64,000 nt of DNA, from contig CAWBMP010000004.1 of the NCBI GenBank assembly GCA_963790025.1, positions 896,001 to 960,000 of the forward strand, written 5' to 3'. The notes beneath the pieces are model-generated. The model did no database searches. It worked only from the letters and a program-made list of their open reading frames with translations, and was not told where the DNA came from. Origin of the DNA: Nitrospirota bacterium (GTDB taxonomy: Bacteria > Nitrospirota > Thermodesulfovibrionia > Thermodesulfovibrionales > Dissulfurispiraceae). Below are positions 5,681 to 22,496 of the stretch, one piece after another; the first letter of the stretch is position 1, and each line of letters begins with the position of its first letter. Both the position numbers and the translations under genes were made by a program.

Positions 5681-6490
5681 ATGGCTATAATTACCATTTC
5701 AAGAGGTTCGTACACCAGAGGGAAAGAAATAGCTGAAAAAGTCGCCAAGAGACTGGGTTATGAGTGTATTGCCAGGGAAGCTGTGATTGAAGCTTCCAAG
5801 GAATTTAATATACCCGAGGTCAAGCTGGTGAGGGCGCTTCACGATGCGCCATCTGTTTTGGACAGATTTTCTTATGGAAAAGAAAAATTCATAGCGTTCT
5901 ACCAGCTTGGGTTCCTGAAACATCTTCATAAAAACAACGTGGTTTACCATGGACTCGCAGGGCATTTCCTGCTCAAAGGGGTCTCTCATGTGCTCAAGAT
6001 CCGTATCATTGCCGATATGGAAGAGCGCGCTAAATTTGAGATGGAACGTGAAAAAATATCTGAGAAAGAAGCATACAGGCTTCTGAAGAACGATGATGAG
6101 GAAAGAAGAAAATGGAGCCAATATGTTCATGGAGTCGATACTAACGACCCTTCACTCTACGACCTTTTAATCAAGATTAGAAAAATAACTGTTGATGATG
6201 CCGTTGACATTATATGTCATACAGTCGGTCTTGAAGATTTCAAGACCACGAGACAGTCTCAGGCGGCATTTGACAATTTGCTCCTTGCTGCCAATGTTAA
6301 GGTTGCCATAATCGAGCAGGCCCCCGATGCTGAAGTTTTTGCCAAGGACGGTATTGTTCGTATCAAGACAAGCGCTACCGAGTATCGTGAAGATGCAGTT
6401 GTCGAAGCCCTAAAGCTGGCTGCCAAGAGTGTAGCCGGCGTTAGGGAAGTCGAAATATACGTCGTACCTGTATTGCCCTTTGGCGTTTGA
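5681..6490 (+). CDS. Cytidylate kinase-like family protein with C-terminal BON-like domain
   Basis: IITISRG..G.EIA..VA..LGY start, YDL motif; C-terminal VAGVREVE. Confidence 0.75.
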   Translation: MAIITISRGSYTRGKEIAEKVAKRLGYECIAREAVIEASKEFNIPEVKLVRALHDAPSVLDRFSYGKEKFIAFYQLGFLKHLHKNNVVYHGLAGHFLLKGVSHVLKIRIIADMEERAKFEMEREKISEKEAYRLLKNDDEERRKWSQYVHGVDTNDPSLYDLLIKIRKITVDDAVDIICHTVGLEDFKTTRQSQAAFDNLLLAANVKVAIIEQAPDAEVFAKDGIVRIKTSATEYREDAVVEALKLAAKSVAGVREVEIYVVPVLPFGV

Positions 6491-6578
6491 CAGTTGTGCA
6501 GATCCTAAGCTTGGGCAATAATAGAGCGATATGTTAGAATATTTAGTAATACCTGCTAACTCATTGATTTTATTGCCT

Positions 6579-6652
6579 GCGCCCATAGCTCAGTTGGATA
6601 GAGCGACGGACTACGAATCCGCAGGTCGGGGGTTCGAATCCTCCTGGGCGCG
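6579..6652 (+). tRNA. tRNA-Arg(ACG)
   Basis: GCGCCCA...TGGGCGC acceptor stem, TAGCTCAGTTGGATAGAGC D arm, CT-ACG-AA anticodon loop, GGTTCGAATCC T arm; CCA not encoded. Confidence 0.97.
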
Positions 6653-6745
6653 TTTCTCACAGGCGCATTGATGTTATCTCACTCTTTTGTATCCATGATG
6701 CGAACGGCAACGATGGCATTTTTAACATAAGGAGCATCACCGGGC

Positions 6746-8077
6746 ATGTCCAGCGGGATACCGTTAAAGAAACTTACCGCTATCAAGATAGCCACTACCT
6801 ATGCGCTGATTGCCGGGCTATGGATACTGTTTTCCGATCGCTTAATAGCGGAACTCTACAGCAATATTGGTACACCTACCAAAGTAAGTATCTTTAAAGG
6901 CTGGTTCTTTATAGGTGTTACCTCCTGGTTGCTATATTTCTTAATACAGCGCAACATTGGGTTAATTCAAGGCTCCGAGAAAGCCCTTAAAGAGTCGATT
7001 GCCAGATTAGAAGATGAAAAAGCCAAGTCGGAGGCTATACTGGCAGCTATTGGAGACGGCATTTGCATTTTTGACACTGATTTTAAAATACTCTATCAGA
7101 ACCAGGCCCACCAGAATTTCCTCGGCAGTCATGCGGGTAAATATTGTTATAAGGCATATGCAGGGAATGACACCATCTGCGAAGGTTGCACGGTAAATAT
7201 GACTTCTCGAGACTGGGGGACCGGCGTAGTCGAACATTCCGTTCCGGCGGGTGATGGAATTAAGGATTTTGAAAGCGCTGTCTTCCCGCTCAAAGACTCC
7301 GCAGGCAAGATAGCTGCGGGGGTTGAGGTGGTCAGGGAAATAACCGCCCGCAAAAAAGCTGAGGGCGATTTACTCAGGACAAAAAAACTGGAATCAATAG
7401 GGGTCCTTGCCCGCGGCTTCTCTCATGATTTCAATAATCTGCTGACCGGCATTCTCGGCAATATTTCACTCGCAAAAACGTCCGTGTCACCCGAAGACAA
7501 CTTGTTCGGTTTTCTCACAAAGGCGGAAAATGCCTGTCTCCGTGCAGAGCATTTGACCAATCAATTGCACGCGATCGCAAAAAGCAGTGAGTCCAAAAAA
7601 AAGTCCCTCTCCATCAGCGGTCTCATAAAAGAGTCTTCAGCATTTGCGCTTAACGGCTCCGCAATCAAATGTACTTATCAGCTTCCCGATCATCTTTGGC
7701 CTGTCATGGTAGACGAAGGTCAGATTAGCCAGGCTATCTATAACATAGTAGCCAATGCCTGTGATGTTATGCACGGTAACGGGCACATTAAAATCGGTGC
7801 TGAGAATGTCGTTATCGGGTCCCATAACAGCTCCATGTTAAAGCGGGGCAACTACATCAGAATATCGATAGAGGACGAAGGCGCCGGCATCGAGAAAGAG
7901 CTGCTCCACAAAATATTCGATCCCTATTTTACTACTAAAGAGTTAAGCAGTGATACGGGGACGGGGCTAAGTCTGGCCGCGAGCTATTTCGCAGTTAAAA
8001 ATCACCAGGGCTATATTTTTGCCGAGTCAACAGTCGGGGAAGGTACCAACTTTTGCGTTTACCTGCCCTCCGCTTAA
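6746..8077 (+). CDS. Membrane PAS-domain sensor histidine kinase
   Basis: Two TM helices, PAS region, HDFNNLL H-box, DEGAGI and FDPYFTTK boxes. Confidence 0.9.
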   Translation: MSSGIPLKKLTAIKIATTYALIAGLWILFSDRLIAELYSNIGTPTKVSIFKGWFFIGVTSWLLYFLIQRNIGLIQGSEKALKESIARLEDEKAKSEAILAAIGDGICIFDTDFKILYQNQAHQNFLGSHAGKYCYKAYAGNDTICEGCTVNMTSRDWGTGVVEHSVPAGDGIKDFESAVFPLKDSAGKIAAGVEVVREITARKKAEGDLLRTKKLESIGVLARGFSHDFNNLLTGILGNISLAKTSVSPEDNLFGFLTKAENACLRAEHLTNQLHAIAKSSESKKKSLSISGLIKESSAFALNGSAIKCTYQLPDHLWPVMVDEGQISQAIYNIVANACDVMHGNGHIKIGAENVVIGSHNSSMLKRGNYIRISIEDEGAGIEKELLHKIFDPYFTTKELSSDTGTGLSLAASYFAVKNHQGYIFAESTVGEGTNFCVYLPSA

Positions 8078-8101
8078 ACTAAAGCAATTCCGGGAGATCT
8101 T

Positions 8102-9469
8102 TTGTTTTCAGATGAGGGACGCATTAATCTGACCGCAGGAAATTTGTGGCTATCAATATGGCAGCTTTCATGGCCCATGATGCTCATCATGATCTTGAAC
8201 TTTTTAGTGGGGCTGACTGATGTTTACGTAGCTGGATTCATCAGTCCCGAGGTGCAGGCGGTTGTAGGCTTCGTCGGCCAGATATTTTTTCTCAACATTA
8301 TCATCGCAAATGCAATCAGTGTCGGCACTATTGCACTGCTTTCGCGCTCCATAGGAGCCGGCGATTTTGGAAGTGCGGTAAAAATTGCGAGGCAGTCGCT
8401 CATATTCGGTATTCTGGCTGCCGTAGTGCTGACTACGGCAGGTCTGGTTTTTTTCCGGGAAATAGCCTTTATTGCCGGATTTCCGGGAAATATTCAAGAA
8501 ATTGCCGGACGCTTCATCAGAATTTTTGCCCTGTCGCTAGGGCCGAATTATATCCTGATTATTTCTAACGCCGTATTTCGGGCAAGCGGTGAGGTCAAAA
8601 AAATCATGTTTACCATGTTCGTGGTAAGCGCCGTGAATATTGCGGGCAATTTCGTGTTTGTCTTCGGCATTCCGCCTTTTCCAAGGCTGGGGTATATTGG
8701 TATCGCTATCTCTACAGCGCTCGCTGTAACAGCGGGGATGACTATAAACTTCACTCTATTTGCCTTCAGCAGATGGCGTGCCATCTACCGGGCGCCGATG
8801 GCCCTCTCGGTCGACACTATCAGAAAGGTCATGAGTCTGAGCTGGCCGGCCGCTTTACTTCAGATCGCCTGGAATGCCGGTAGCATTGCTCTTTTCAACA
8901 TACTGGGAAGACTCGGCAGCGCAAGCATCACCGCGCTCGCTTCGCTAACGAACGGTCTCAGAATAGAAGCTATTATCTATCTCCCGGCATTTGCCCTGAA
9001 TATGGCTGCGGCAGTGATCATAGGGCAAAGCCTGGGGGCAAAAGACTTTGCCAGGGCGGAAGAGGCCGGATGGAAGATGGTTTCAGCCGGCATAGCTCTC
9101 GTCAGTGCAATGGCATTCATTATTTTCGTCCGGGCAGAAAACTTTGCGTCAATAATTACCAGCGACCCCTCCGTGCTAAAAGAAACCGCCCGATACCTGA
9201 GATTTAACATGGTATCCGAGCCCTTCATGGCATTAAGCGTAATACTGGGAGGAGGACTTCAGGGAGCAGGGGACACCAGGGGGACTATGAGAATAATTGT
9301 CTTAGCCATGTGGGTCATCAGGATTCCCCTGGCCGGTCTGCTTGCTCTTGTTTTCGGCTACGGGGCTTTGGGGGTCTGGACAGCAATGGTCACTTCCATG
9401 ATCATTCAAGGTATACTTATGGCATATAGATTTCATAACGGACTATGGAAAAAACTAACTCTTGAATAA
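8102..9469 (+). CDS. MATE family efflux transporter
   Basis: ~12 hydrophobic helices, LSWPMM, GQSLGA, GAGDTR motifs. Confidence 0.9.
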   Translation: MFSDEGRINLTAGNLWLSIWQLSWPMMLIMILNFLVGLTDVYVAGFISPEVQAVVGFVGQIFFLNIIIANAISVGTIALLSRSIGAGDFGSAVKIARQSLIFGILAAVVLTTAGLVFFREIAFIAGFPGNIQEIAGRFIRIFALSLGPNYILIISNAVFRASGEVKKIMFTMFVVSAVNIAGNFVFVFGIPPFPRLGYIGIAISTALAVTAGMTINFTLFAFSRWRAIYRAPMALSVDTIRKVMSLSWPAALLQIAWNAGSIALFNILGRLGSASITALASLTNGLRIEAIIYLPAFALNMAAAVIIGQSLGAKDFARAEEAGWKMVSAGIALVSAMAFIIFVRAENFASIITSDPSVLKETARYLRFNMVSEPFMALSVILGGGLQGAGDTRGTMRIIVLAMWVIRIPLAGLLALVFGYGALGVWTAMVTSMIIQGILMAYRFHNGLWKKLTLE

Positions 9470-10810: not shown

Positions 10811-10883
<73 letters not shown>

Positions 10884-10916
10884 CTTTGAATTTCAATAAG
10901 TTATGCCATTCCATTT

Positions 10917-11993
10917 TTACCCTGAAATCCCGACTGTAGCAGAATTGTAGCAGATTTCTTTTTTTACCATTCCGCCGTTCAGGGTATTGTCCAAAATATC
11001 TACTGCTTTTACTTTGTGACTCGGTGCAAGATGAGCATATCTCAATGTCATCTTGATATCCTTATGCCCTAACAATTCTTTGACCGTGGTAATATCCACC
11101 CCTGCCATAACAAGATGTGATGCGAAGGTATGCCGCAGGTCATGAAACCGGAAATCTTTAATGCCTCCTTTTCTACATGCTGTAGAAAAGCTGTTCTTAA
11201 CGTCCTTATACGGTCTTCCGGTTGCATTGTCAAAAAAGACATAAGGAATATCGAGTCTCCTCGGTACGCTCTGAAAAACAGCCTTTAGAGTAACGTTAAT
11301 TGGTATCTCCCTGCGCTCTCCGTTCTTTGTCCTATCCAGAAGGATAAAACCGTGTTTCAAATCGATGTGAGCATCCCATCTCAGAGAGAGTATTTCACCT
11401 TTACGGCACCCCGTATTCATAGCTGTTGTTACGATGGGCTTCAGATGCGTATCACATGCATCAAGAAGTCTTATGCATTCTTCTTGTGAGAGATACCGAA
11501 GGCGCTTGTTATTCTCAGGCAGAAGTTTTACCCTGCGTATGCTTTTCAGGGCCGCTTCATCAATCATGTTCCAGTCAAGGGCCTTGGTGAACATATGAGA
11601 AAGTGTAGCAAGCAAACGGTTGGCAGTAGAAGGTTTATTCCCCTTCTTCAGTCTTTCCGTTTGAAACTCTTCAACCGTGCTTGTGTTGAAGTATGCCAGA
11701 TCACAATTCATATACCGCCTTGCCAATTGTTTCACCATATACCCTTTAGAAGTTCTCCATGATCGTTGTCTGCCTTCAGCCCATGCAGAATACTTCTCTA
11801 CAAGCTCGTCAAAAATATGGTGCTGTTTAATCTGCGACTTGTCAGAGCAAGCACCTTCCTGCATGTCAACAAGCGTTTTAGCATAGACTTTTTCAGCAAG
11901 CTTTTTGTTATCCGTTTTTGTGGATAACTGAATTCTCTTGCAGTCCTGCGTTATTGTAAACCAGAAGATTTTACCTCGTCGGTAAAGTCCCAT
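10917..11993 (-). CDS. Tyrosine recombinase / site-specific integrase
   Basis: TGCRKGEIL, FHDLRHTFAS, LLGH..I.MTLRYAH catalytic motifs. Confidence 0.96.
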   Translation of the reverse strand: MGLYRRGKIFWFTITQDCKRIQLSTKTDNKKLAEKVYAKTLVDMQEGACSDKSQIKQHHIFDELVEKYSAWAEGRQRSWRTSKGYMVKQLARRYMNCDLAYFNTSTVEEFQTERLKKGNKPSTANRLLATLSHMFTKALDWNMIDEAALKSIRRVKLLPENNKRLRYLSQEECIRLLDACDTHLKPIVTTAMNTGCRKGEILSLRWDAHIDLKHGFILLDRTKNGERREIPINVTLKAVFQSVPRRLDIPYVFFDNATGRPYKDVKNSFSTACRKGGIKDFRFHDLRHTFASHLVMAGVDITTVKELLGHKDIKMTLRYAHLAPSHKVKAVDILDNTLNGGMVKKEICYNSATVGISG

Positions 11994-12230: not shown

Positions 12231-13037
12231 CTAAAATGGCTCTACAGCCTCATTAAGCCAGTTCTGAACACCGGCTATGTACTTATCCTTAATCTTTTCT
12301 ACGAGGGCATTATCACAGTATTTTTCCAGTTCAGCACGGAACTTCCTGTTGATGTATTTATAGAGCACTTGCAAAACCCCTGAATCGCCGTTAGTTTGAA
12401 AATCAAAAAACTGAAGTCTGTCATAGTGAGAAGCAAAGCTTTCCGGATTTGTTAAAATTTCCTGCAAGTTCTTTTTTACGCTTCTAATTTGAATCTCAAA
12501 CCTTGTGTGACTCTTTCCCGTGCCAAGAAGCTCTTTCTCATAATCTGTTATCTGGAATCCCTTTTTAAGACGAGATTTAATTTCCTGCGTCTTATCATAT
12601 ATCCTGATTTTCGGATCAGAACCCGCATATATAGTCCCCCTATAGAAACTGAGGCTAGTTGAACGGATATTCTTGACTCTCAACATAGAAAGGAGGGCAT
12701 CAATCGGAAAGTCCTCAATATCTACAGCTATATCCAGCCTTGATGTATTCAACTCCTGAATATTCAGACTCGAACTATTGAAAATGCAGAAAATATAAGA
12801 AAGCATGAAATCAGAGCAACTGAAATATTTAGGGTTAATATCTATCTTAGTAAAGGGGATATTTGCGTTCCGAGACTCTCCAAATTTATGAGGATAATAA
12901 AAGACTACCGCTCTATCCAGCCTACAGATAAATTTATAAATATGACTACGGGACGTGTCTTCAGTAATTGTTCCATGATTCTCTAGATATTCCCTGTCAG
13001 GGGGCCTATAAGTAGTGAGGCTTAATTTATCAATCAT
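12231..13037 (-). CDS. Rolling-circle replication initiator (Rep_trans/CRI-like)
   Basis: SRLDIAVD, TIYAG, RIYDK and RFEIQ motifs in the order typical of this superfamily. Confidence 0.75.
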   Translation of the reverse strand: MIDKLSLTTYRPPDREYLENHGTITEDTSRSHIYKFICRLDRAVVFYYPHKFGESRNANIPFTKIDINPKYFSCSDFMLSYIFCIFNSSSLNIQELNTSRLDIAVDIEDFPIDALLSMLRVKNIRSTSLSFYRGTIYAGSDPKIRIYDKTQEIKSRLKKGFQITDYEKELLGTGKSHTRFEIQIRSVKKNLQEILTNPESFASHYDRLQFFDFQTNGDSGVLQVLYKYINRKFRAELEKYCDNALVEKIKDKYIAGVQNWLNEAVEPF

Positions 13038-14539: not shown

Positions 14540-15373
14540 CTACGGGGAGTTGTTTTCTTTCGTCACATGTCTCACATAATCTTTGGACAAATATTTTTGC
14601 CAATTCGGAACTGCTAAAACGGGAGCCTTCTGTTCTGCATTACGATCCCATTCATGATCGGGGCTATACGGATAAAGACTGATATTATAGCTCTGAGCAC
14701 CATCAGATGCCTTAGTCTCTTTTATTGCGATAATATAAAGCTGGCTAAATTTATACCAATACACTTTCTTAGTACGAGATCCGGTATAAGAAATCACGGC
14801 TGCAACATAGAGCATCTTAGGTCTCGGATTTAGAGAGGATATCAAAGGGTGACAAGGTACACTCGCATCTTCCTGACCTGGGAATACGGTCTTTATATCT
14901 GGAAAATCGCCGTAAGCTTCCTTAAACCACTTGACGAAATCGATTTTACCTCTAATGTCGCTAGCAACCATATAATCAGTCTGCAAAATCGTAGCAGGCT
15001 CTTTGCCGACGTTAATAAATTGAAGATCACCACCACCAAACCACCCGCCTTCCGACTGATTAGGGGTAACAGATAGTTTATTAAGTTTAAGATACACGTA
15101 TGGCCGCTGTTCCAAATCAAATTTCGTGGATTCAATTGTATTCTGTGTACTCTGTATATCTACACTTCTTTTTAGTTGCATAGTCTGATAACCTAAGAAA
15201 AACAATGTCGGAATACCCACGATTGCAAGAAGAATCGAGCCAATAGCAGAATATTTCTCCGCATTTTGTTTTGTGATTCTCGTATATAAGAAAATAAGTG
15301 GGAGTACAACAAAACAGATAATGAGACCAGAAATTGATATTAACAACTTATAATTCGACCAGAACCCGCCCAT
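14540..15373 (-). CDS. Hypothetical membrane-anchored protein (two N-terminal TM helices, beta-rich soluble domain)
   Basis: Two hydrophobic segments followed by EQRPYV...FINVGKEPA; start uncertain (ORF open to 15553). Confidence 0.7.
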   Translation of the reverse strand: MGGFWSNYKLLISISGLIICFVVLPLIFLYTRITKQNAEKYSAIGSILLAIVGIPTLFFLGYQTMQLKRSVDIQSTQNTIESTKFDLEQRPYVYLKLNKLSVTPNQSEGGWFGGGDLQFINVGKEPATILQTDYMVASDIRGKIDFVKWFKEAYGDFPDIKTVFPGQEDASVPCHPLISSLNPRPKMLYVAAVISYTGSRTKKVYWYKFSQLYIIAIKETKASDGAQSYNISLYPYSPDHEWDRNAEQKAPVLAVPNWQKYLSKDYVRHVTKENNSP

Positions 15374-15607
15374 ATTACTCGAAGACAAAAAGCCCCCCTT
15401 TTTGGCTCGAATTGTTCTACTTCTAATGTCCACAATCTTACCACAACAATACTCGCTTTTTACAGAAGAGGACTGATTAATCCAATTCCGCGTCTTCACT
15501 CCAACATCCCTAACAGTCGCGTATTTCCAATATATCTCTTGATATCTTTTCAACAGGTCAATCTTGGTATAAACTCGACATTGAAACTGTCTGCCTAATG
15601 GGGAAGC

Positions 15608-18511
15608 TTACGATATTTTCTTTGCAAGATCATTTTCTGAGAAACCATGCATTTCTAATCCTTTTTTATGCATCCAGATGACTTGGTTGTCTCCCTTCGC
15701 TATTTCGACGATATCATTGTAATCTATATAATCATTACATTTGGGACAATATATGCCCAGATCGCTAAGTCTTATCCTTAAGCCTATATCGCCTGTCAAA
15801 CACTTCCACGAATTTTCAAAGATTCCATTAAAATAGGCCGCAAATATTTCACGTTTACTTTTAAGTTCTTCTTCAAATTCAGATATTACTGCCAATTTTC
15901 TCAGACCTTTCTCTTGAACGTCATTAAGAAAATTACGTAGTCCATGAAAACCTAGATGTGAATGTTTTTTTGAAATAATTTGTCCATCTTCAGTTTGGGG
16001 GGATCTCGAAAATTCTACCTCGGGGTCTACCGTGCCGAGATGAGGGACTAAAAGCTGACACTTTAAATATTGTACAGAAATGCTTTTATCATAGCTTGTA
16101 TCGTTCGGCATCCCTATACACAACGGCCTTCCCTTGTACTGAAAAGGGTTATCTGCTTCATGCATTTCAAAAAGCAAGCCCGTCGAAAAGCCTTCGCTGA
16201 AGAGTTCCTTATGTTCCGCTTTCATTACTTTTAATATAAAATCAAAACCTTTTCGTTTTATAGAATCGCCATGATTTAAAATAATGACATCACTTAACGA
16301 TTTATGAAATGTGGTCCAACTCATAAATTTTGCCGCTGCTCCGCGGTTCATGAATAATACCAACCTCTGCGGCGCATAATCTATCTGGTAGCCTGTTTTC
16401 TTTTCAAGTTCTTCTCTTTTGGGATTGCCTTTCTCCGACTTATCCAAAAGATCGTTAAGTTCATAAATTAAAGTTAATACTGCTTCAAGGTCGTGCGTAT
16501 GGTCGAAATGTGCGTGTGTTAATATTATGGCATCAAGATCCCTCAGAGTGAACCCTTGCTCTATAAAATTATCAATAAATCCAATCCCAGGATCAATGAC
16601 GATTCCCTTACCGTTCCATGCTAAAAAATACCCTCCGCCTCTACTGCCTTCTTTGTAATACATCGATGGAGTATAAGAATTAAATTTCCTTAATATACAC
16701 AGAAACTTATCATCTTCCTTTAACGTCCGAGGGGCTAGTAGAAATTTCCAGAAATCTGATTGTTCCTTCTCTCTAATTCCAAATAGATCATTAAGTACTT
16801 CGGTTACCGTATCGACTGGTGATGATACCCTTATAGGTGTTTTCTCTATATCTGCAATTTTTTTGGTAATCCTTGATTCCCAGATATCAAAGTCTTTAAG
16901 TCTGTCGTCACCGCTCTCAAAATGCTTTTTAGCTTTATGAAACATGCCAAGTGATTCTCTAAATAGAGAAGCATCATTCTTCAATTCAGCCAAATTAAAC
17001 AAGGCATAACCACAGTTATAGTATGCTTGGTGATAATCCTCTTTATACTTCACAGCCAGGGCATATTTCTCAAAAGACTCCCTGAAAAGAGCCTCGTCAT
17101 TTCTTATCCTCGCAAGGGCTGATAATGCATTGCCCCAATTATTGTATGCTTTGTGATAATCCTCTTTATACTTCACAGCCAGGGCATATTTCTCAAAAGA
17201 CTCCCTGAAAAGAGCCTCGTCATTTCTTATCCTCGCAAGGGATGATAATCCAGTGCCCCAGTTATAGTATGCTTCGTGATCATCCTCTTTATACTTCACA
17301 GCCAGGGCATATTTCTCAAAAGACTCCCTGAAAAGAGCCTCGTCATTTCTTATCCTCGCAAGGGCTGATAATGCATTGCCCCAATTATTGTATGCTTGGT
17401 GATAATCCTCTTTATACTTCACAGCCAGGGCATATTTCTCAAAAGACTCCCTGAAAAGAGCCTCGTCATTTCTTATCCTCGCAAGGGCAAGTAATGCATT
17501 GCCCCAGTTATAGTATGCTTCGTGATAATCCTCTTTATACTTCACAGCCAGGGCATATTTCTCAAAAGACTCCCTGAAAAGAGCCTCGTCATTTCTTATC
17601 CTCGCAAGGGCTAGTAATGCATTGCCCCAATTATTGTATGCTTGGTGATAATCCTCTTTATACTTCACAGCCAGGGCATATTTCTCAAAAGACTCCCTGA
17701 AAAGAGCCTCGTCATTTCTTATCCTCGCAAGGTCTGATAATGCATTGCCCCAGTTATAGTATGCTTCGTGATAATCCTCTTTATACTTCACAGCCAGGGC
17801 ATATTTCTCAAAAGACTCCCTGAAAAGAGCCTCGTCATTTCTTATCCTCGCAAGGGCTAGTAATGCATTGCCCCAATTATTGTATGCTTGGTGATAATCC
17901 TCTTTATACTTCACAGCCAGGGCATATTTCTCAAAAGACTCCCTGAAAAGAGCCTCGTCATTTCTTATCCCCGCAAGGTCTGATAATGCATTGCCCCAAT
18001 TATTGTATGCTTGGTAATAATCCTCTTTATACTTCACAGCCAGGGCATATTTCTCAAAAGACTCCCTGAAAAGAGCCTCGTCATTTCTTATCCCCGCAAG
18101 GTCTGATAATGCATTGCCCCAATTATAGTATGCTTGGTGATAATCCTCTTTATACTTCACAGCCAGGGCATATTTCTCAAAAGACTCCCTGAAAAGAGCC
18201 TCGTCATTTCTTATCCCCGCAAGGTCTGATAATGCATTGCCCCAGTTATAGTATGCTTCGTGATAATCCTCTTTATACTTCACAGCCAGGGCATATTTCT
18301 CAAAAGACTCCCTGAAAAGAGCCTCGTCATTTCTTATCCCCGCAAGGTCTGATAATGCATTGCCCCAGTTATAGTATAAAACCGATTTGCTTTGGGCTGA
18401 TTTGGCCTCATCGGTCAAACTTTGAAAAAACTTGTTAGCATCTTCTAATTGACCCTTTTTCGCAAGGTCACGCGCTTTCTTAATCTGCGCTCGAAACTCT
18501 TTGTCTTGCAT
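15608..18511 (-). CDS. TPR-like tandem-repeat protein fused to an MBL-fold metallo-hydrolase
   Basis: 11 near-identical 41-aa repeats plus one degenerate; GGGYFL, IVIDPG, THAHFDH (HxHxDH), later conserved H/D; GGAG RBS before MQDKEF. Confidence 0.92.
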   Translation of the reverse strand: MQDKEFRAQIKKARDLAKKGQLEDANKFFQSLTDEAKSAQSKSVLYYNWGNALSDLAGIRNDEALFRESFEKYALAVKYKEDYHEAYYNWGNALSDLAGIRNDEALFRESFEKYALAVKYKEDYHQAYYNWGNALSDLAGIRNDEALFRESFEKYALAVKYKEDYYQAYNNWGNALSDLAGIRNDEALFRESFEKYALAVKYKEDYHQAYNNWGNALLALARIRNDEALFRESFEKYALAVKYKEDYHEAYYNWGNALSDLARIRNDEALFRESFEKYALAVKYKEDYHQAYNNWGNALLALARIRNDEALFRESFEKYALAVKYKEDYHEAYYNWGNALLALARIRNDEALFRESFEKYALAVKYKEDYHQAYNNWGNALSALARIRNDEALFRESFEKYALAVKYKEDDHEAYYNWGTGLSSLARIRNDEALFRESFEKYALAVKYKEDYHKAYNNWGNALSALARIRNDEALFRESFEKYALAVKYKEDYHQAYYNCGYALFNLAELKNDASLFRESLGMFHKAKKHFESGDDRLKDFDIWESRITKKIADIEKTPIRVSSPVDTVTEVLNDLFGIREKEQSDFWKFLLAPRTLKEDDKFLCILRKFNSYTPSMYYKEGSRGGGYFLAWNGKGIVIDPGIGFIDNFIEQGFTLRDLDAIILTHAHFDHTHDLEAVLTLIYELNDLLDKSEKGNPKREELEKKTGYQIDYAPQRLVLFMNRGAAAKFMSWTTFHKSLSDVIILNHGDSIKRKGFDFILKVMKAEHKELFSEGFSTGLLFEMHEADNPFQYKGRPLCIGMPNDTSYDKSISVQYLKCQLLVPHLGTVDPEVEFSRSPQTEDGQIISKKHSHLGFHGLRNFLNDVQEKGLRKLAVISEFEEELKSKREIFAAYFNGIFENSWKCLTGDIGLRIRLSDLGIYCPKCNDYIDYNDIVEIAKGDNQVIWMHKKGLEMHGFSENDLAKKIS
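17024..18376 (-). repeat. Coding tandem repeat, 11 x 123 bp
   Basis: Unit YxNWGNALxxLAxIRNDEALFRESFEKYALAVKYKEDYHxA, directly visible in DNA and protein. Confidence 0.97.
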
Positions 18512-18756
18512 AAGCTCTCCTTCGCATATCGCCACCAAAAAGCTACATTACTATATCACAAAATACTAATGTCTATTAAAAAATCATGAACGTTTTGACG
18601 ATGGGAGACTGTAGTAAAATTGTAGCAGAACATATCGAAAAGGCGGTATCAGACAGAAAATACCGAACAATGCAGAAAGAAAATCTTTGTCATTAATTCA
18701 ATAAGATAGCTAATTGTCCAGACCAGAAGCCACTTTGTCTAAATTAACCCTGTAGC

Positions 18757-18804
18757 GAATGGCATTCAAGAGGTCGACGGTTCGATCCCGTTCAGCTCCA
18801 CTTT
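18757..18804 (+). repeat. attR: duplicated 3' part of tRNA-Ala
   Basis: GAATGGCATTCAAGAGGTCGACGGTTCGATCCCGTTCAGCTCCACTTT identical to 10840..10887. Confidence 0.97.
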
Positions 18805-18958
18805 AAACTTCTCATTCATTTGCTCGTCATTAACCCCTCCAGAAAGAATAAATAAAGAGGACAGTTCTTTTAATTGCTGTTTGTTATTAAATCGTTAAGT
18901 AATGGAAAGAGAGAGCCTAATTGCATTATAATTCAACTATGAGGAAAGGAGGTTCATT

Positions 18959-19156
18959 ATGTCTGTTAAAGATATGATCAAAAACGAGATCGATAAGCTG
19001 CCTGAGAATCTTCTTGCAGAGGTTTTTGACTTTATCCAATTTTTAGAAACTAAGAAAGAAAAAACTCTCCTCGCCAAGGCATCACAGGAACTTTCAAGTC
19101 TAGCATTTGAGAAAATATGGAATAATGACGAGGATGCAGTCTATGACAGCCTATGA
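18959..19156 (+). CDS. DUF2281-like antitoxin
   Basis: LPENLLAEVFDFIQFLE and IWNNDEDAVYD patterns; overlaps a downstream PemK-like gene. Confidence 0.8.
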   Translation: MSVKDMIKNEIDKLPENLLAEVFDFIQFLETKKEKTLLAKASQELSSLAFEKIWNNDEDAVYDSL

Positions 19157-19337
19157 AAAGGGAGATGTTGTCCTTGTCCCTTTCCCCTTCAGCAACCAGA
19201 CCGATCTTAAGAAGCGTCCGGCAGTAATCATAAGCGCGAACTCCTATAACAATGCTTCCCATGATGCGGTCATTATGGCGATCACAAGCCAGATTGGAAA
19301 AACTATCGGCATCGGAGAATGCCTCATAACGAAATGA
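19143..19337 (+). pseudogene. Truncated PemK/MazF toxin
   Basis: KGDVVLVPFPFS....KKRPAVIIS...AITS, but stops after 64 aa with no recognisable C-terminal half. Confidence 0.8.
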
Positions 19338-19525
19338 CTCTTTCCACATTACGTCCCGGCCATGCTACTATAATCAGCTGATCGGACTATGCAGTTTTTA
19401 TGCAGTTCATATCTGCAAAGATATGCAAGAAAAGCAGTCCGTTCTTCTTCTGTGATACGCTGAAATGCAAGTATTTGCAAAGACTTGCCAGTATTTGAAA
19501 GGTAAGTCATTGAAAAAGAACATAC

Positions 19526-19570
19526 ATGGCATTCAAGAGGTCGACGGTTCGATCCCGTTCAGCTCCACCA
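19526..19570 (+). repeat. Third copy of the tRNA-Ala 3' part (att of an older island), ending in CCA
   Basis: ATGGCATTCAAGAGGTCGACGGTTCGATCCCGTTCAGCTCCACCA. Confidence 0.95.
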
Positions 19571-19595
19571 TTTATTTTCAAGCACTTGCATGTCT

Positions 19596-19724
19596 TTAAA
19601 TCTCTCCTCCAACCGCCTGATTGTAAGGTTTTTGTTTAGTCGGTTTTCCTGACGGCACATTGTCCAGAATATCAACCGCCCTGGCCTAGTGCGCCGGTGC
19701 AAGATGAGACGCAAAGGTGCGTCT
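19596..19724 (-). pseudogene. Integrase C-terminal relic
   Basis: Translates RRTFASHLAPAH*ARAVDILDNVP...; matches the intact integrase ends RHTFASHL and HLAPSHKVKAVDILDN. Confidence 0.85.
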
Positions 19725-19830
19725 GGCCTGATATGCCTGTTACTGTTATAATAACTCTTCTCTTGATAATTTAATTTTTAGATGATATTCTAAACTGTAT
19801 GTTAAAAAAACAATTCCCTGTCGGCCTATT

Positions 19831-20298
19831 ATGGACGTAAGAGATAACACTTTCAATTTAAAGTGCGAGATGCTCAAGAAAACCAAGTGGGTGAGCGATT
19901 TCACATTGCAGGAGATTGAGGAGTTTGCCGACTACCTGCATATTGTAAATGCGATAAAGGATACACATATATTCAATGAGGGCGACGAAGACTCCTTCAT
20001 GTGTCTTATCGTAGAAGGCAGTATCTCAATAGTGAAAGAGGCTTACAGTGGCATGAAGAAGACCGTAACTATTCTGTACAACGGAACCTTCGGGGAGATG
20101 GCTCTCATCGACGGAAATCCCCGCTCCGCTTCCGCCTTAGCCGTTGAAAATAGCATCCTTCTGACGCTGAACAACTTGCATTTCAAGCAACTCCTTGCCA
20201 ATAGCCCGAACTTGGGAATAAAAATCCTGTTAAAACTATCACAGCTCATGAGCCAGCGGCTCCGCTCAACCACAGACATGCTGATTGATTACCTGTAG
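19831..20298 (+). CDS. Stand-alone cyclic nucleotide-binding domain protein
   Basis: IFNEGD, FGEMALIDGNPRSASA; no HTH. Confidence 0.9.
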   Translation: MDVRDNTFNLKCEMLKKTKWVSDFTLQEIEEFADYLHIVNAIKDTHIFNEGDEDSFMCLIVEGSISIVKEAYSGMKKTVTILYNGTFGEMALIDGNPRSASALAVENSILLTLNNLHFKQLLANSPNLGIKILLKLSQLMSQRLRSTTDMLIDYL

Positions 20299-20364
20299 CA
20301 ACTGCCACTTCTTGCCTCTGAATGGGTCAGGCTTTTTAGGTTTCATAGATTTTTAAATTATAAA

Positions 20365-20398
20365 ACCCCTAAGTCAGGCTTACCTAACTTAGGGGTAT
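20365..20398. terminator. Hairpin between convergent genes
   Basis: ACCCCTAAGT...ACTTAGGGGT with A/T-rich flanks. Confidence 0.7.
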
Positions 20399-20497
20399 AT
20401 TTTTTTATTTTATAACATCCTTCAAAGATCACAGCTGTGCGTATTCCAAGCCACTGCCACATTTGTTTATTAAGCATTCAGTTACCTTAAGCTTTCA

Positions 20498-21418
20498 TTA
20501 ACCGTCTTTCTTAATAACAGCTATCAGTTCGTCTCTGACCTTCTCCCATTGATCTATGGGAACCTGACAGGTCCCGACAACTGCGTGGCCCCCTCCACCG
20601 TATTTGAGCATCAGAGATCCTACATTTGTTTTTGAGGTCCGGTTAATTATGCTGTGTCCGCAGGTAATTACCATGTTCTGTTTTTTAAACCCCCATATGA
20701 TTCTCATCGAAATATTCTGATCAGGGAACAGAACGTATTCCTTGAACCGGTTTCCGCAAAGAATTTCTTCTACATTGTGAAGATCGATAATCAGTACATT
20801 CCCATCCGCCTTGCTGTTTGCATTGATCATCGCTTCGTACGCTTTTTCCTGTTCATAATACCGTTTAATGCGTTCCTGCACATCCGGCTTGCTGAGAATC
20901 TCTTCCACATCCATTTCACGACAGTATTTTATCATGTCTTCCATGAGATTATAATTTGAGATCCTGTAGTCCCGATATCTTCCCAATCCTGTGCGGGGAT
21001 CCATTATAAATGAAAGCAATATCCAACCTTTCGGATTTGTAATGTCTTCTGCCGTCAAATTCCCGCTGTCACTCTTATCAACCGAAACCATCAATCCGTT
21101 TTCATCATATCTGGCAAATTTTGCAGCACCGCCATAATAATCGTATATGACTCTGGCACAACTGGGCGCAACTTCAGACTTGCCTTTAAATTCGAGTCTC
21201 GATTCCAGCCGTTCTTTTTCGCTGGAATGATGATCAAACCACAAACCGCAACCGGAGACATATGGAATGTTCGCAAGAACGTCATTTTTGGTAACAGTAA
21301 CCTTTCCGTCCTGAATATCCTTGGGGTGAACAAACGTATATTCATCCACCACACCAGCTTCCACGAGTAAAACCGCACACACAAGACCGTCGTAGTCCGA
21401 CCGGGTTAATAGCCTCAT
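20498..21418 (-). CDS. DHH-family phosphoesterase (exopolyphosphatase/nanoRNase-like)
   Basis: TRSDYDG, FDHH, GGGGH motifs. Confidence 0.88.
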   Translation of the reverse strand: MRLLTRSDYDGLVCAVLLVEAGVVDEYTFVHPKDIQDGKVTVTKNDVLANIPYVSGCGLWFDHHSSEKERLESRLEFKGKSEVAPSCARVIYDYYGGAAKFARYDENGLMVSVDKSDSGNLTAEDITNPKGWILLSFIMDPRTGLGRYRDYRISNYNLMEDMIKYCREMDVEEILSKPDVQERIKRYYEQEKAYEAMINANSKADGNVLIIDLHNVEEILCGNRFKEYVLFPDQNISMRIIWGFKKQNMVITCGHSIINRTSKTNVGSLMLKYGGGGHAVVGTCQVPIDQWEKVRDELIAVIKKDG

Positions 21419-21439
21419 AATTTGATCCTCCTATAACAA

Positions 21440-21573
21440 TTTGTCGTCAAGAACGCCAAAAGATCCGGCTGATCTTTACCCATAGCAAGCATCTATTTAT
21501 TTGCCCTGGACAGACTATAATCGGCAACCGCATGCCAGGTTTTCTCTACGAATTCTTCTGATATGGGTTCCAT
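21440..21573 (-). pseudogene. Fragment of a hypothetical gene with an internal stop
   Basis: GGAG RBS, then MEPISEEFVEKTWHAVADYSLSRANK*MLAMGKDQPDLLAFLT reading through a TAG and breaking off. Confidence 0.5.
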
Positions 21574-21997
21574 CTTACAAATCTCCCCGTTAGAACTTTT
21601 ATTCGAACCATCCATATTATACCTGATTTTGTGGCCCTGATAAATGAAAGGCACTTTGCCGACCTCATAAAGGGACCGGTAAACCCGTAAGCTTCCCCTC
21701 CAAGTAGACAGCATATAAGTAAAGCTTGCTGAAGCAGTGTGAATGCCATATTTACTGTAGTAAAAATGTAGCAGAACATATCGAGAGCACAAAAAATACC
21801 GAACATACCGAATGGTGAATGAGGTCATCCCTTAGTTATTGACATTCTCAATTAAAGAATTCCCTGAATATCAAATATCAATGTGTTTAACCCTAGCGAC
21901 CCTGATGACCCGTAATAATATCCCCACTCTTGATAATTTACTTTTCAGGTGATATTCTTAATAGTATGTTTAAAAAACAATTCCCTATCGGCCTATT

Positions 21998-22468
21998 ATG
22001 GACTTAAGAGGCGACGCTTTCTATCTAAAGTGCGAGATGCTCAAGAAAACCCAGTGGGCAAGCGACTTCACATTAGGTGAGATTGAACAGTTTGCCGACT
22101 ACCTGTTTGTTGTGCATGCGCTAAAGGATATGCCTGTTTTCAGTGAGGGCGACGAAGACGCCTTCATGTGTCTTATCGTAGAAGGCAGCATCTCCATAGT
22201 AAAAGAGGATTACAGCGGCATGAAGAAGACCATAACTACTCTGCACGACGGAAATACCTTCGGAGAGATAGCACTTATCGACGGAAGTCCCCGCTCCGCT
22301 TCCGCCATCGCCGTTGAAAATAGCACTCTTCTTACACTCCACAACATGTATTTCAAGCAACTCCTCGACAATAGCCCGAACCTGGGAATAAAGATCTTGT
22401 TCAAACTCGCACGGCTCATGAGCCAGAGGCTTCGCGTAACCACAGACATGCTGATTGATTACCTGTAG
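21998..22468 (+). CDS. Stand-alone cyclic nucleotide-binding domain protein (duplicate of 19831..20298)
   Basis: FGEIALIDGSPRSASA; near-collinear with the first copy. Confidence 0.9.
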   Translation: MDLRGDAFYLKCEMLKKTQWASDFTLGEIEQFADYLFVVHALKDMPVFSEGDEDAFMCLIVEGSISIVKEDYSGMKKTITTLHDGNTFGEIALIDGSPRSASAIAVENSTLLTLHNMYFKQLLDNSPNLGIKILFKLARLMSQRLRVTTDMLIDYL

Positions 22469-22496
22469 CAATCGTATGGCGCTCCGCTGTTACAGA

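Follow-up and report, generated by a model that had tools for sequence, protein, structure and literature searches.

A TPR-like repeat array joined to a metallo-beta-lactamase-fold hydrolase on a tRNA-Ala island: a candidate sensor-effector without an NTPase

Within the window (the whole 64,000-nucleotide stretch of Nitrospirota DNA that was analysed), one minus-strand gene encodes eleven near-identical 41-residue TPR-like units, a degenerate twelfth, and a hydrolase domain of the metallo-beta-lactamase (MBL) fold, all in a single chain. The gene is cargo of a small integrative island. Taken together, the findings below have led to the tentative hypothesis that it specifies an NTPase-less single-chain sensor-effector, in which a peptide-binding array would be joined to an RNase Z/ElaC-type hydrolase, with a role in mobile-element conflict.

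The gene and its island

The features are as follows.

10811..10894, plus strand: tRNA-Ala(GGC), with the left attachment repeat (10840-10894)
10917..11993, minus strand: tyrosine integrase of the island (Pfam Phage_integrase, E=1.9e-32; phrog_1, E=1.2e-65)
14540..15553, minus strand: downstream ORF of 337 aa with two predicted membrane helices, after a 54-nt gap
15608..18511, minus strand: TPR-array/MBL gene, 967 aa from ATG
15611..16708, minus strand: MBL-fold hydrolase domain (Pfam Lactamase_B, AF2, Foldseek)
16499..16516, minus strand: HAHFDH, the HxHxDH metal-binding motif (aa 675-680)
16709..16903, minus strand: helical linker from array to hydrolase (aa 546-610; helices H31-51 and H59-86 of the C-terminal model)
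16904..17026, minus strand: twelfth, degenerate unit (aa 505-545; helical in both AF2 models)
17027..18379, minus strand: 11 near-identical 123-bp (41-aa) TPR-like units (aa 54-504)
18380..18511, minus strand: N-terminal cap, two helices, basic (aa 10-53 of the 976-aa reading)
18757..18811, plus strand: right attachment repeat, which copies 55 nt of the tRNA-Ala 3' end at 96% identity

The ORF list gives the reading frame as 15608..18538 with a TTG start. Because a GGAG (18517-18520) lies 5 nt before the ATG at 18511 and the protein is 967 aa long in its database copy (P0002), the likely gene is 15608-18511, the extent given in a preliminary description of this DNA. The frame is intact across its 2.9 kb. 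The protein is alone in its sequence cluster, on a single contig, and its next relative shares 39% identity.

The same description had placed the gene on a mobile element. Indeed, it lies with an integrase between direct repeats of the tRNA-Ala 3' end, the right one closing a 7.9-kb island, in DNA of low GC content (0.38-0.40 inside versus 0.45-0.51 outside). The 337-aa ORF is possibly co-transcribed with the gene. No family was found for it in Pfam, PADLOC, NCBIfam or PHROG, the atlas gives only 'hypothetical protein' clusters, and it is not among the 15 largest neighbour clusters of the relatives, which were those inspected. The island ORFs include no protease, radical-SAM or RT gene; genes for cNMP-binding domains lie just outside. 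No system model in PADLOC-DB 2.0 fits the window protein, the sole hit being a repeat-driven match to PrimPol (19.6 bits) in which no stretch passes alone. The protein was correctly said to be free of an NTPase, since it has no NTPase family in Pfam, NCBIfam or PADLOC and no Walker A motif; membership among NLR/STAND proteins (Avs, bNACHT, NB-ARC), for which a P-loop NTPase family or Walker A was sought, was rejected.

The repeat array and its variable positions

TRF places a single array at 17016-18377, with a period of 123, 11.1 copies, 96% matches and no indels, which corresponds to the 11 repeats of 123 bp first described: eleven in-register units and a degenerate twelfth that differs from them at 54-58 of 123 nt and is probably a C-terminal capping repeat. 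Compared pairwise, units 1-11 differ at 0-8 of 123 nt and so pass the identity threshold by which highly internally conserved repeats are defined in fungal NLRs (85% or more over 100 aa or more). Ten of the eleven are distinct, units 5 and 7 being identical, and all eleven unit codes originally listed agree with the translation. Furthermore, the half-unit described as invariant at the DNA level is constant in 11/11 units over columns 41-114 (74 nt), covering IRNDEALFRESFEKYALAVKYKED; given 13 variable columns, simulation assigns such a run a probability of 4.5e-5.

A canonical TPR is a 34-residue helix-turn-helix with the pattern W4-L7-G8-Y11-A20-F24-A27-P32. Matches to Pfam TPR_11 (35.0 bits, cut-off 26.8) and TOM20_plant (34.2 bits, cut-off 20.6) place the array in the TPR-like superfamily. 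Assignment to the canonical 34-residue TPR was rejected: the period is 41 aa, HMMER opens a 7-residue gap per unit against the TPRs of OGT, and P32 is replaced by Glu. No match to Pfam TPR-S (PF20308, 'Tetratricopeptide Repeats-Sensor', cut-off 27.6 bits) was seen at E<=0.1. The AF2 array model has 12 helix pairs (pLDDT 79.5), and in each unit helix A (17 residues) and helix B (15 residues) are separated by a turn of 3 residues and followed by a loop of 6; the N-terminal cap (net charge +3) is modelled as helices H3-18 and H22-38.

Of the 123 nt columns, 15 vary among the 11 units, and 2 of these are the array's first codon. Substitutions had been called mostly non-synonymous, and 11 of 13 columns are, though this share is as expected under neutrality (P=0.50); the two synonymous columns are AAC/AAT at codon 4 and CTA/CTT at codon 10. 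The variable sites fall at TPR positions 1, 2, 5, 9, 10, 12, 13 and 16, and the 9 codons of the 41 that vary include all five canonical ligand positions (hypergeometric P=1.7e-4). The variable helix-A positions also fall together on one face of the helix (resultant 0.62-0.83, P=0.0001-0.006). Thus, the suggestion that the variable sites share one face of helix A is borne out, both by these statistics and by the AF2 helices onto which the residues were mapped, a check that the preliminary description had itself proposed. In addition, pN is 0.177 at the 9 codons and 0 at the other 32, while pS is 0.036 array-wide. A crude column test against neutrality at the 9 codons gives P=0.006, a value that rests on only 13 variable columns in units that are not independent; positive selection at the ligand-face codons is only suggested. 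For the whole unit, pN/pS is 1.10.

Recent expansion of the array, or its homogenisation, with exchange between units is supported by the pS of 0.036 and by four-gamete violations between columns 7/12 and 28/32/40. To this extent the proposed intragenic recombination stands. Units 5-11 alternate the boundary haplotypes GAA..TAT-AAC and CAA..AAT-AAT and therefore have a 246-bp superperiod, so that the 'mosaic' of alleles is partly inherited from a duplicated two-unit block. The combinations E2-Y5 and Q2-N5 are likewise linked, and because the Y/N linkage includes the synonymous site AAC/AAT, it points to the common descent of two unit types, not to a code selected time and again. The longest exact repeat in the array, 233 bp, is above short-read length, and unit number and order are given as assembled. 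A DGR target was considered and rejected, since there is no RT among the island ORFs and the changes involve all four bases.

The hydrolase and the relatives of both halves

The C-terminal domain matches Pfam Lactamase_B at 40.4 bits (cut-off 22.7), and its AF2 model has a pLDDT of 86 and a pTM of 0.81. The metal-binding motifs are complete, with D649, H675, H677, D679, H680, H776, D813, H833 and H861 in conserved columns; H160, H162, D164 and H165 are invariant in alignment A1. This D, HxHxDH, H, D, H series, with the alpha-beta/beta-alpha fold, makes the domain a member of the metallo-beta-lactamase superfamily. Foldseek matches it to ElaC, YhfI, RNase Z and Apyc1 with probability 1.00 (E=2.7e-14 to 1e-8, TM 0.7-0.8 on targets) and, as modelled, it is a complete MBL fold of this phosphodiesterase type. 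It is not assigned to a named family: the RNase Z equivalog (TIGR02651/ElaC) was rejected at 24.3 bits against a cut-off of 292.95, and Apyc1 (PF23023) at 12 bits (E=0.15) against 50, the protein having 967 aa versus about 250 aa for stand-alone Apyc1. No ComEC-type entry is named among the best 50 fold matches listed. Of the early claim that the HxHxDH domain is a defence-type nuclease, the complete metal site remains; the domain is of RNase Z/ElaC type and not the ComEC-like DNase described in the available part of PMC12799240.

A first search found 83 proteins at E<=1e-3, the window's own copy included, and a genome scan confirmed at least 124 loci in the scanned species genomes, mainly MAGs of anaerobic lineages. 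HxHxDH is present in 80/80 kept loci. Of these, 68 carry an N-terminal extension of 200 aa or more. Self-comparison scores best at period 34 in 50 loci, and in 23 loci neighbouring repeats share 70% identity or more. These TPR(34-aa)-MBL proteins (P0003-P0061, L004-L080), annotated only 'tetratricopeptide repeat protein' or 'MBL fold metallo-hydrolase', are homologous to the window protein at 24-39% identity in the linker (an equivalent Lys/Glu-rich segment), MBL core and C-terminal subdomain. They share its family motif ('VLRRWNSYTP' in them, 'ILRKFNSYTP' in the window protein) and, like it, carry an N-terminal array, often internally conserved, and no NTPase. A clear Walker A occurs only in P0073, an NLR-like relative with the order NB-ARC, TPR, MBL, and one weak mid-protein match in P0072.

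The relatives differ in that their repeats are canonical 34-aa TPRs or have periods of 30, 36, 43 or 46, and in that their arrays are old at the DNA level. In 18 arrays of 34-aa TPRs, positions 2, 12, 13, 5, 34 and 9 are the most variable, and pN/pS is 0.82 at positions 2, 5, 9, 12 and 13 versus 0.39 elsewhere, a pattern that relaxed constraint fits as well as diversifying selection does. Because between-unit pS is 0.11-0.75, repeat conservation in these proteins is largely due to purifying selection, not recent shuffling. A search of homologue neighbourhoods had been proposed as a check. No conserved partner and no defence-island signal were found among the neighbours, and of 99 nearest-neighbour ORFs, 41 are without a family, about 10 are of mobile or defence type, and most others are housekeeping. 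Members that consist of the MBL domain only are found in operons of DGQHR/DndB-like, radical-SAM and SNF2 type. The RT beside one relative (L013) belongs to a group II intron.

The repeat itself has other relatives. In SIR2-, STAND(AAA_16)- and ParA-like proteins (P0085-P0233), repeats of 41-44 residues are 33-64% identical to four window units (64% in P0161), with the same period, hypervariable positions and Asn6-Trp7-Gly8 core. In 34 arrays of this class, entropy is highest at positions 41(=34/0), 9, 13, 2, 16, 12, 5 and 1; Asn occurs at position 6 in 33 (mean entropy there 0.62), position 5 includes Y in 24 arrays and N in 24, and position 12 is mostly S or L. The internally conserved array architecture is shared by 90 of 149 class members. 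Among the 34 scanned relatives, SIR2_2 is found in 7, AAA_16/STAND in 3 and a ParA-like domain in 2, and 13 exceed the TPR-S cut-off. The SIR2 parts match models for pAgo-associated SIR2, ThsA and PDC-S65, and the ParA-like parts match PDC-M28B. Unlike the window protein, the class has HxHxDH in 0/149 members, and in the proteins inspected the array is C-terminal to the partner domain, whereas here it is N-terminal to the hydrolase. Literature searches found no experimental study of these array proteins. Since its hydrolase belongs to the TPR-MBL family and its repeat to the SIR2/STAND/ParA-like class, the window protein joins two known module types.

Possible functions and known systems

In the model that is tentatively preferred, the twelve repeats would form a superhelix with helix A building its inner face, which would bear the invariant Asn6 and the array's only variable residues (positions 1, 2, 5, 9, 10, 12, 13 and 16) and may bind an extended protein or peptide ligand. 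The helical linker would connect this array to a binuclear-metal RNase Z/ElaC-type phosphodiesterase with all catalytic residues, which ligand binding might switch or target; RNA (tRNA-like) or nucleotide phosphodiesters would be the likeliest substrates. The array, young at the DNA level, would have grown by tandem duplication, partly of two-unit blocks, plus unit exchange, with persisting differences concentrated at the ligand face. As cargo of the tRNA-Ala island, the gene would most likely act in conflict with phages or other mobile elements and an immune sensor-effector role would be plausible. Counted against this model are the lack of a PADLOC match, of a TPR-S match and of a conserved partner, the housekeeping-rich neighbourhoods, the radical-SAM/SPASM genes next to or fused with some relatives, the relatives' arrays (conserved largely by purifying selection, and with ligand positions that relaxed constraint would also explain), the length of the exact repeats, and the neutral-looking whole-unit pN/pS and non-synonymous share.

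A rather unlikely alternative is a substrate-recruiting enzyme, in which the superhelix feeds a protein or peptide to the MBL domain, as in OGT or SPINDLY. The task of the domain would be to take off or cut a group of phosphodiester or sulfate type on that substrate, or else to process a ribosomal peptide that a radical-SAM/SPASM maturase helps to make. Among solved structures, the repeats are closest in sequence to the peptide-binding TPR superhelix of OGT (E=6.4e-10), with whose Asn the invariant Asn6 aligns; OGT and SPY are among the top array fold matches and have the highest identities (18-21%), and the best fold match of the hydrolase is an MBL-type arylsulfatase. A radical-SAM/SPASM peptide-maturase-like gene is the nearest neighbour in 6/66 N-extended loci (L017, L031, L034, L036, L070, L073), and P0043 is an MBL + radical-SAM fusion; such genes point to peptide chemistry rather than immunity. 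However, these neighbours are of several types, all below NCBIfam equivalog cut-offs, and the window island has none. Moreover, the other partners of the repeat class are SIR2 and STAND modules, and a housekeeping enzyme would be unexpected on a 7.9-kb integrative island or with a young array.

It is less probable still that the array has no special meaning, being a tandem repeat that slipped recently or was partly mis-assembled, within an ordinary TPR protein whose least constrained positions vary. Exact repeats longer than short reads, the pN/pS of 1.10, the neutral non-synonymous share and the low constraint at positions 2, 5, 9, 12 and 13 in the relatives' arrays would all be compatible with this. 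Nevertheless, ten distinct units in an intact frame within a 1.74 Mb source contig argue against it, as do the zero non-synonymous changes at 32 codons and the recurrence of the architecture in 23/80 independent loci and 90/149 class members.

Little credence is given to counter-defence or signal quenching, in which the MBL domain would degrade cyclic (oligo)nucleotide signals like phage Apyc1, with the array as scaffold or localiser. The fold match to the Apyc1 structure 7u2s is confident (E=3e-10, TM 0.70 on target), cAMP-binding MBL proteins and yeast PDE1 match as well, and the setting (island cargo, with cNMP-binding-domain genes nearby) would suit such a role. On the other hand, the Apyc1 family score is far below its cut-off, Apyc1 proteins are small and stand alone, the MBL family is mostly found in chromosomal, non-mobile contexts, and a scaffold leaves the hypervariable ligand face unexplained. 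Finally, the TALE/PPR-like nucleic-acid binder entertained in the preliminary description, in which positions 2 and 5 (or 12 and 13) of each repeat would read one base and guide an RNase-Z-like nuclease, is very improbable: the small recurrent alphabet, the E2-Y5 and Q2-N5 linkage, the RNA-processing nuclease fold and the HAT-repeat RNA-binding proteins among the array fold matches would favour it, but the array is acidic (net -13, pI 5.46), no PPR or TALE model matches the protein at E<=0.1, the closest solved sequence relative binds peptides, and the linkage reflects shared descent.

A bolder and highly speculative reading is that the 41-residue units constitute a readable peptide-recognition code. 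An Asn6 ladder would hold the extended backbone and each unit would recognise one or two side chains through a small alphabet (Y/N, S/L, D/A, G/R/K/E) at positions 2, 5, 9, 12, 13 and 16; unequal recombination between near-identical units would rewrite specificity quickly, and the cassette would be swapped among SIR2, STAND, ParA-like and MBL effectors. If so, this would be a natural reprogrammable protein-binding array with an RNase-Z-like killer or processing enzyme. If the sensor-effector model is correct, prokaryotic repeat sensors of very high identity would not be confined to NLR-type proteins but would be portable cassettes, placed here on a hydrolase without an NTPase switch, and an RNase-Z-like phosphodiesterase would join the list of effectors. 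A young array with differences only at the predicted ligand face would also offer a clean case for specificity set by unit order and alleles, which bears on the design of repeat-protein binders. For the family of at least 124 loci, the TPR fusions, radical-SAM neighbours and DGQHR/SNF2 operons need a joint explanation.

Among known systems, the RNase Z/ElaC/YhfI/Apyc1 group has the fold and complete metal-binding motifs of the window hydrolase, which scores far below its family cut-offs (24 versus 293 bits for RNase Z, 12 versus 50 for Apyc1) and adds N-terminal strands with the family motif and a C-terminal CPKC-containing beta subdomain. HamM and trypsin-MBL modules also have an MBL-fold hydrolase, there as effector; in the available text they are ComEC-like DNase proenzymes beside a fused protease (PMC12799240), and the HamM type was rejected here, since the island has no protease and the fold matches are of RNase Z/ElaC type. 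A precedent is Dsr1, in the accessible portion of its source an NTPase-less TPR sensor with an effector; the same paper names MBL as one of the effectors joined to this Avs7-type TPR sensor (PMC13581612). As there described, such fusions resemble the window protein in having one chain, an alpha-helical TPR-like sensor with an enzyme, and no STAND NTPase. The Avs7/Dsr1 sensor is, however, a bilobed, sharply bent TPR domain and not a run of near-identical units, and the window effector, unlike theirs, is C-terminal and RNase-Z-like; the likeness is one of description, with no PADLOC model matched.

The array itself can be compared with the highly internally conserved TPR, ANK and WD repeats of fungal NLRs, as set out in part of PMC4986451. 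In both, repeats are more than 85% identical over stretches exceeding 100 aa, the sites that vary lie on the concave ligand face, units show signs of exchange, and a long TPR variant occurs (42 aa in fungal NLRs, 41 aa in the window protein). The window protein differs in having no NACHT or NB-ARC, and positive selection in it is only suggested. Highly conserved internal repeats have also been noted for bacterial NLRs, according to the accessible text of 10.1101/2020.01.06.895854.

Gene and repeat array

The TPR-MBL gene lies on the minus strand, and a TTG start in the ORF list gives 15608..18538 (976 aa, the numbering used here). A GGAG at 18517-18520 stands just ahead of an ATG at 18511, and the protein's database entry has 967 aa; the likely gene is therefore 15608..18511, the coordinates of the preliminary description. 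Tandem Repeats Finder places a single array at 17016-18377 (period 123, 11.1 copies, 96% matches, 0 indels), which encodes 11 near-identical 41-aa units in register (aa 54-504); unit 12 is degenerate, with 54-58 mismatches in 123 nt against the other units. The codes assigned earlier to the units are correct in 11 of 11 cases. Only 15 of the 123 nt columns vary, 2 of them in the first codon of the array and 2 synonymous, and columns 41-114 are without any variation, as had been claimed for one half of the unit at the DNA level. Given 13 variable columns, a 74-nt invariant run has P=4.5e-5, and the 9 variable codons (out of 41) take in all five canonical TPR ligand positions (P=1.7e-4). This pattern of variation is not chance.

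The alleles had also been described as mosaic. The codes do recur, but boundary haplotypes GAA..TAT-AAC and CAA..AAT-AAT alternate across units 5-11 and also differ at a synonymous site, so that some of the mosaic was inherited from a two-unit block that had been duplicated. All four allele combinations are present between columns 7/12 and columns 28/32/40, which indicates that units have exchanged sequence, or that mutation has been recurrent. Between units, pS is 0.036 and pN 0.039 overall, with pN at 0.177 in 9 codons and 0 in the remaining 32. DGR-type mutagenesis was rejected, since the island carrying the gene is without a reverse transcriptase and base changes hit all four bases, without adenine bias.

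A single-sequence AF2 model of aa 10-560 (pLDDT 79.5) has a two-helix cap and then twelve helix pairs, each unit consisting of a 17-residue helix A, a turn of 3, a 15-residue helix B and a loop of 6. When Trp-Gly is set at TPR positions 7-8 and helix A taken as positions 1-17, helix A holds all variable residues but one loop site, and helix B is invariant throughout. A helical wheel puts the variable positions on a single face (resultant 0.62-0.83, P=0.0001-0.006); thus, model and wheel agree with the earlier proposal that variation occupies one face of helix A. In a fold search, the array matched generic superhelical TPR/HAT proteins alone, at low TM.

The hydrolase domain and its family

The protein scores 40.4 bits against a cut-off of 22.7 for Pfam Lactamase_B, and its PHROGs annotation is 'metal-dependent hydrolase' alone. 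In an alignment of aa 516-976 with 43 of 82 relatives, the columns of metal ligands H675, H677, D679, H680, H776 and D813 show no variation, and those of H833 and H861 reach 90% conservation or more; the family motif VLRRWNSYTP is also aligned, the window version being ILRKFNSYTP. PDB fold matches of the hydrolase model (AF2; pLDDT 86, pTM 0.81) are 8gyg (an MBL-type arylsulfatase), 1zkp (a Bacillus ElaC homologue), YhfI and Apyc1, together with RNase Z, ELAC1/2, PDE1, a PhnP-family diphosphatase and PqqB. The family-specific models all fall far under cut-off (RNase Z, 24 vs 293 bits; Apyc1, 12 vs 50). From these fold matches and low scores, the hydrolase is, by predicted fold, a divergent RNase Z/ElaC-type phosphodiesterase.

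Searching with aa 546-976 returned 83 proteins, one of them the window's own copy; the best of the others has 39% identity, and no population variants of the array were among them. When one genome from each species was scanned, 175 stretches matched and 124 loci were confirmed, of which 80 were kept for analysis; these span Altiarchaeota, Methanophagales, Bathyarchaeia, Nitrospirota, Desulfobacterota, Planctomycetota, Bacillota and others. HxHxDH is present in 80/80 of them and an N-terminal extension of at least 200 aa in 68/80. The best-scoring self-match has period 34 in 50 of the 80, with clear repeats also at periods 30, 36, 43 and 46, and adjacent-repeat identity reaches at least 70% in 23 of these loci and in 21 of the 82 database relatives. 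One Altiarchaeum relative (L002, 8879-11242) carries three 30-aa non-TPR-like units of 95% identity and then two longer repeats; thus, the family recruits further repeat types. A Walker A motif was found in none of the 80 loci. The only clear one is in the database protein P0073, in the order NB-ARC, TPR, MBL, and another, P0072, has one weak mid-protein match.

In 18 relatives' arrays of at least 4 units each, between-unit pS is 0.11-0.75, so that these arrays are old at the DNA level; judged by sequence divergence, none is nearly as young as the window array. Their pN/pS is 0.82 at positions 2, 5, 9, 12 and 13 vs 0.39 elsewhere and exceeds 1 in 6 of the 18, values that would fit purifying selection outside the ligand face and, on that face, either weak constraint or diversification.

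The island and the neighbourhoods of relatives

The TPR-MBL gene had been thought to travel on a mobile element, and it is in fact the outermost cargo of a 7.9-kb island with an integrase, a GC content of 0.38-0.40 within vs 0.45-0.51 outside, and tRNA-Ala 3'-end copies as its bounds:

10811-10884, tRNA-Ala, with the tyrosine integrase next to it
18757-18811, copy of the tRNA-Ala 3' end, 55 nt, 96% identical

A third, more diverged 3'-end copy (19524-19578, 87%) bounds a 0.7-kb islet, whose ORFs are a DUF2281/VapB-like antitoxin (18959-19156) and a short PemK/MazF-like ORF (19107-19337; 76 aa, covering profile positions 1-49 of 109). The segment 19659-19708 has 76% identity to the integrase 3' end, and 18757-19708 as a whole looks like tandem remnants of older insertions at the same tRNA-Ala.

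A 337-aa ORF with two membrane helices lies 54 nt downstream of the TPR-MBL gene; it has no known family, and the atlas returned unnamed clusters only. The promoter/terminator scan gave counts not above those of shuffled sequence. Upstream of the gene (18608-18669), stretches of 31 and 17 nt recur 3.1 kb off (21754-21805; 97% and 94%), with a weaker copy at the integrase 3' end (10933-10963, 68%) and a terminator-like hairpin inside the upstream copy (18665-18644). A 268-aa island ORF (12231-13037, minus strand) without Pfam or PHROG family resembles Rep_trans rolling-circle initiator clusters (language-model features, score 0.95; recognition of 1689 is low), which offers a lead only that the island may replicate. 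Within 19745-22471, paralogous cNMP-binding-domain genes (19831-20298 and 21998-22468; 155/156 aa, 84-87% DNA identity across ~560 bp) enclose 306-aa and 111-aa ORFs of no family; only their cNMP-binding part matches Pycsar-type effector models (PADLOC, E=3e-12).

As to a known defence family for the TPR-MBL protein, PADLOC gave one repeat-driven PrimPol match and nothing else. Clustering of 2166 ORFs from the 80 loci and the window found no conserved partner gene, the largest neighbour cluster being spread over at most 11 loci; among the 15 largest, the integrase cluster alone includes the window. A family scan of nearest neighbours covered 99 of 115 ORFs, from 66 loci. Of these, 41 had no family, ~10 were of mobile/defence type (group II intron RT, DUF559, S24, DUF3368, D5_N, DNA methylase, Trypsin_2, SIR2_2, two transposases), 2 were radical SAM, and most others were housekeeping; by this crude tally, there is no clear defence-island signal for the MBL family. 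At one locus (L013), a 14-unit TPR-MBL gene is directly preceded by a complete group II intron (5920-7815; Rfam D1-D4 and D5/6 matches, RVT_1 ORF), and the RT there, considered as a DGR component, belongs to this intron. At eight loci (L018, L030, L032, L061, L063, L068, L071, L075), MBL-only relatives of ~420 aa, at ~8.8-12.6 kb, directly follow a DGQHR/DndB-like gene, with radical-SAM and SNF2-helicase genes in the same operon-like cluster. These clusters look like an undescribed DNA-directed system that shares the family's MBL domain.

A proposed sensor-effector and its alternatives

An exhaustive search with four window units returned 6694 representative proteins at E<=1e-3, 404 of them at E<=1e-30. 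Among the best 149 matches, self excluded, the period is 41 in 75 and 44 in 50, adjacent-repeat identity is at least 0.7 in 90, and HxHxDH occurs in none. A Pfam scan of 34 proteins of this class (the top 26 and 8 others) found SIR2_2 in 7, AAA_16 in 3, ParA-like in 2 and DUF2971 in 1, and 13 passed the cut-off of the TPR-S 'sensor' model. A literature search on 'TPR-S' found nothing relevant; TPR-S, lactamase and SIR2 are all unmentioned in PMC7159879. In PADLOC, the SIR2 parts match pAgo-associated SIR2, ThsA and PDC-S65, and the ParA-like parts PDC-M28B. The top variable positions within the 34 arrays, 41(=34/0), 9, 13, 2, 16, 12, 5 and 1, are the window's set; position 5 is Y in 24 arrays and N in 24, and Asn is among the position-6 residues in 33. 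By its sequence, the window protein is a SIR2/STAND-typical sensor cassette joined to an effector family usually bearing 34-aa TPRs.

The anatomy and the associations of both modules agree and would fit a single-chain, NTPase-less sensor-effector. The observation in the preliminary description is thus real and statistically non-random, and its interpretation holds in part: the protein combines known module types in a new way and is an unusually young example of them, one for which we infer the ligand, the coupling of sensor to hydrolase, the substrate and the immune role. No published description of a TPR-array/MBL fusion was found in the literature searched; supplements, outside its scope, could list such architectures.

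The chief alternative is an enzyme that recruits its substrate as OGT does and may be tied to radical-SAM peptide chemistry. The closest solved structure by sequence is the TPR superhelix of O-GlcNAc transferase (OGT; E=6.4e-10), in an alignment with a 7-residue gap in each unit, and the Asn6 that never varies among the window repeats pairs with an OGT Asn. The Asn ladder of OGT holds peptide backbones. In addition, a radical-SAM/SPASM peptide-maturase-like gene is nearest to 6 N-extended family members, and the database relative P0043 is a fusion. The array may also reflect trivial slippage or mis-assembly: it contains exact repeats of up to 233 bp, so that copy number and order hinge on long reads, and its non-synonymous share is unremarkable under whole-unit neutrality (P=0.50); when the null is 'neutral at those 9 codons, synonymous changes anywhere', a crude column test has P=0.006. 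Less likely are an Apyc1-like signal quencher, which the hydrolase resembles in fold and not in family-model score, and a nucleic-acid code reader, the array being acidic (net -13, pI 5.46).

The hydrolase had been linked to the MBL nuclease effectors of defence systems, a link that was not sustained. In the HamM and trypsin-MBL modules, the MBL is described as of ComEC-like DNase type, whereas that of the window is RNase Z/ElaC-type (PMC12799240). In a single case (L052), a TPR-MBL gene is immediately preceded, on its own strand, by a Trypsin_2 peptidase gene (8092-8946), an arrangement reminiscent of the protease-MBL pairs in known defence systems. For an NTPase-less sensor-effector, Dsr1 provides a precedent, with MBL listed among the effectors fused to its sensor type (PMC13581612). 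Furthermore, repeats of high internal identity whose concave-face residues vary are described as a hallmark of fungal NLRs (PMC4986451), and the same hallmark is noted for bacterial NLRs (10.1101/2020.01.06.895854).
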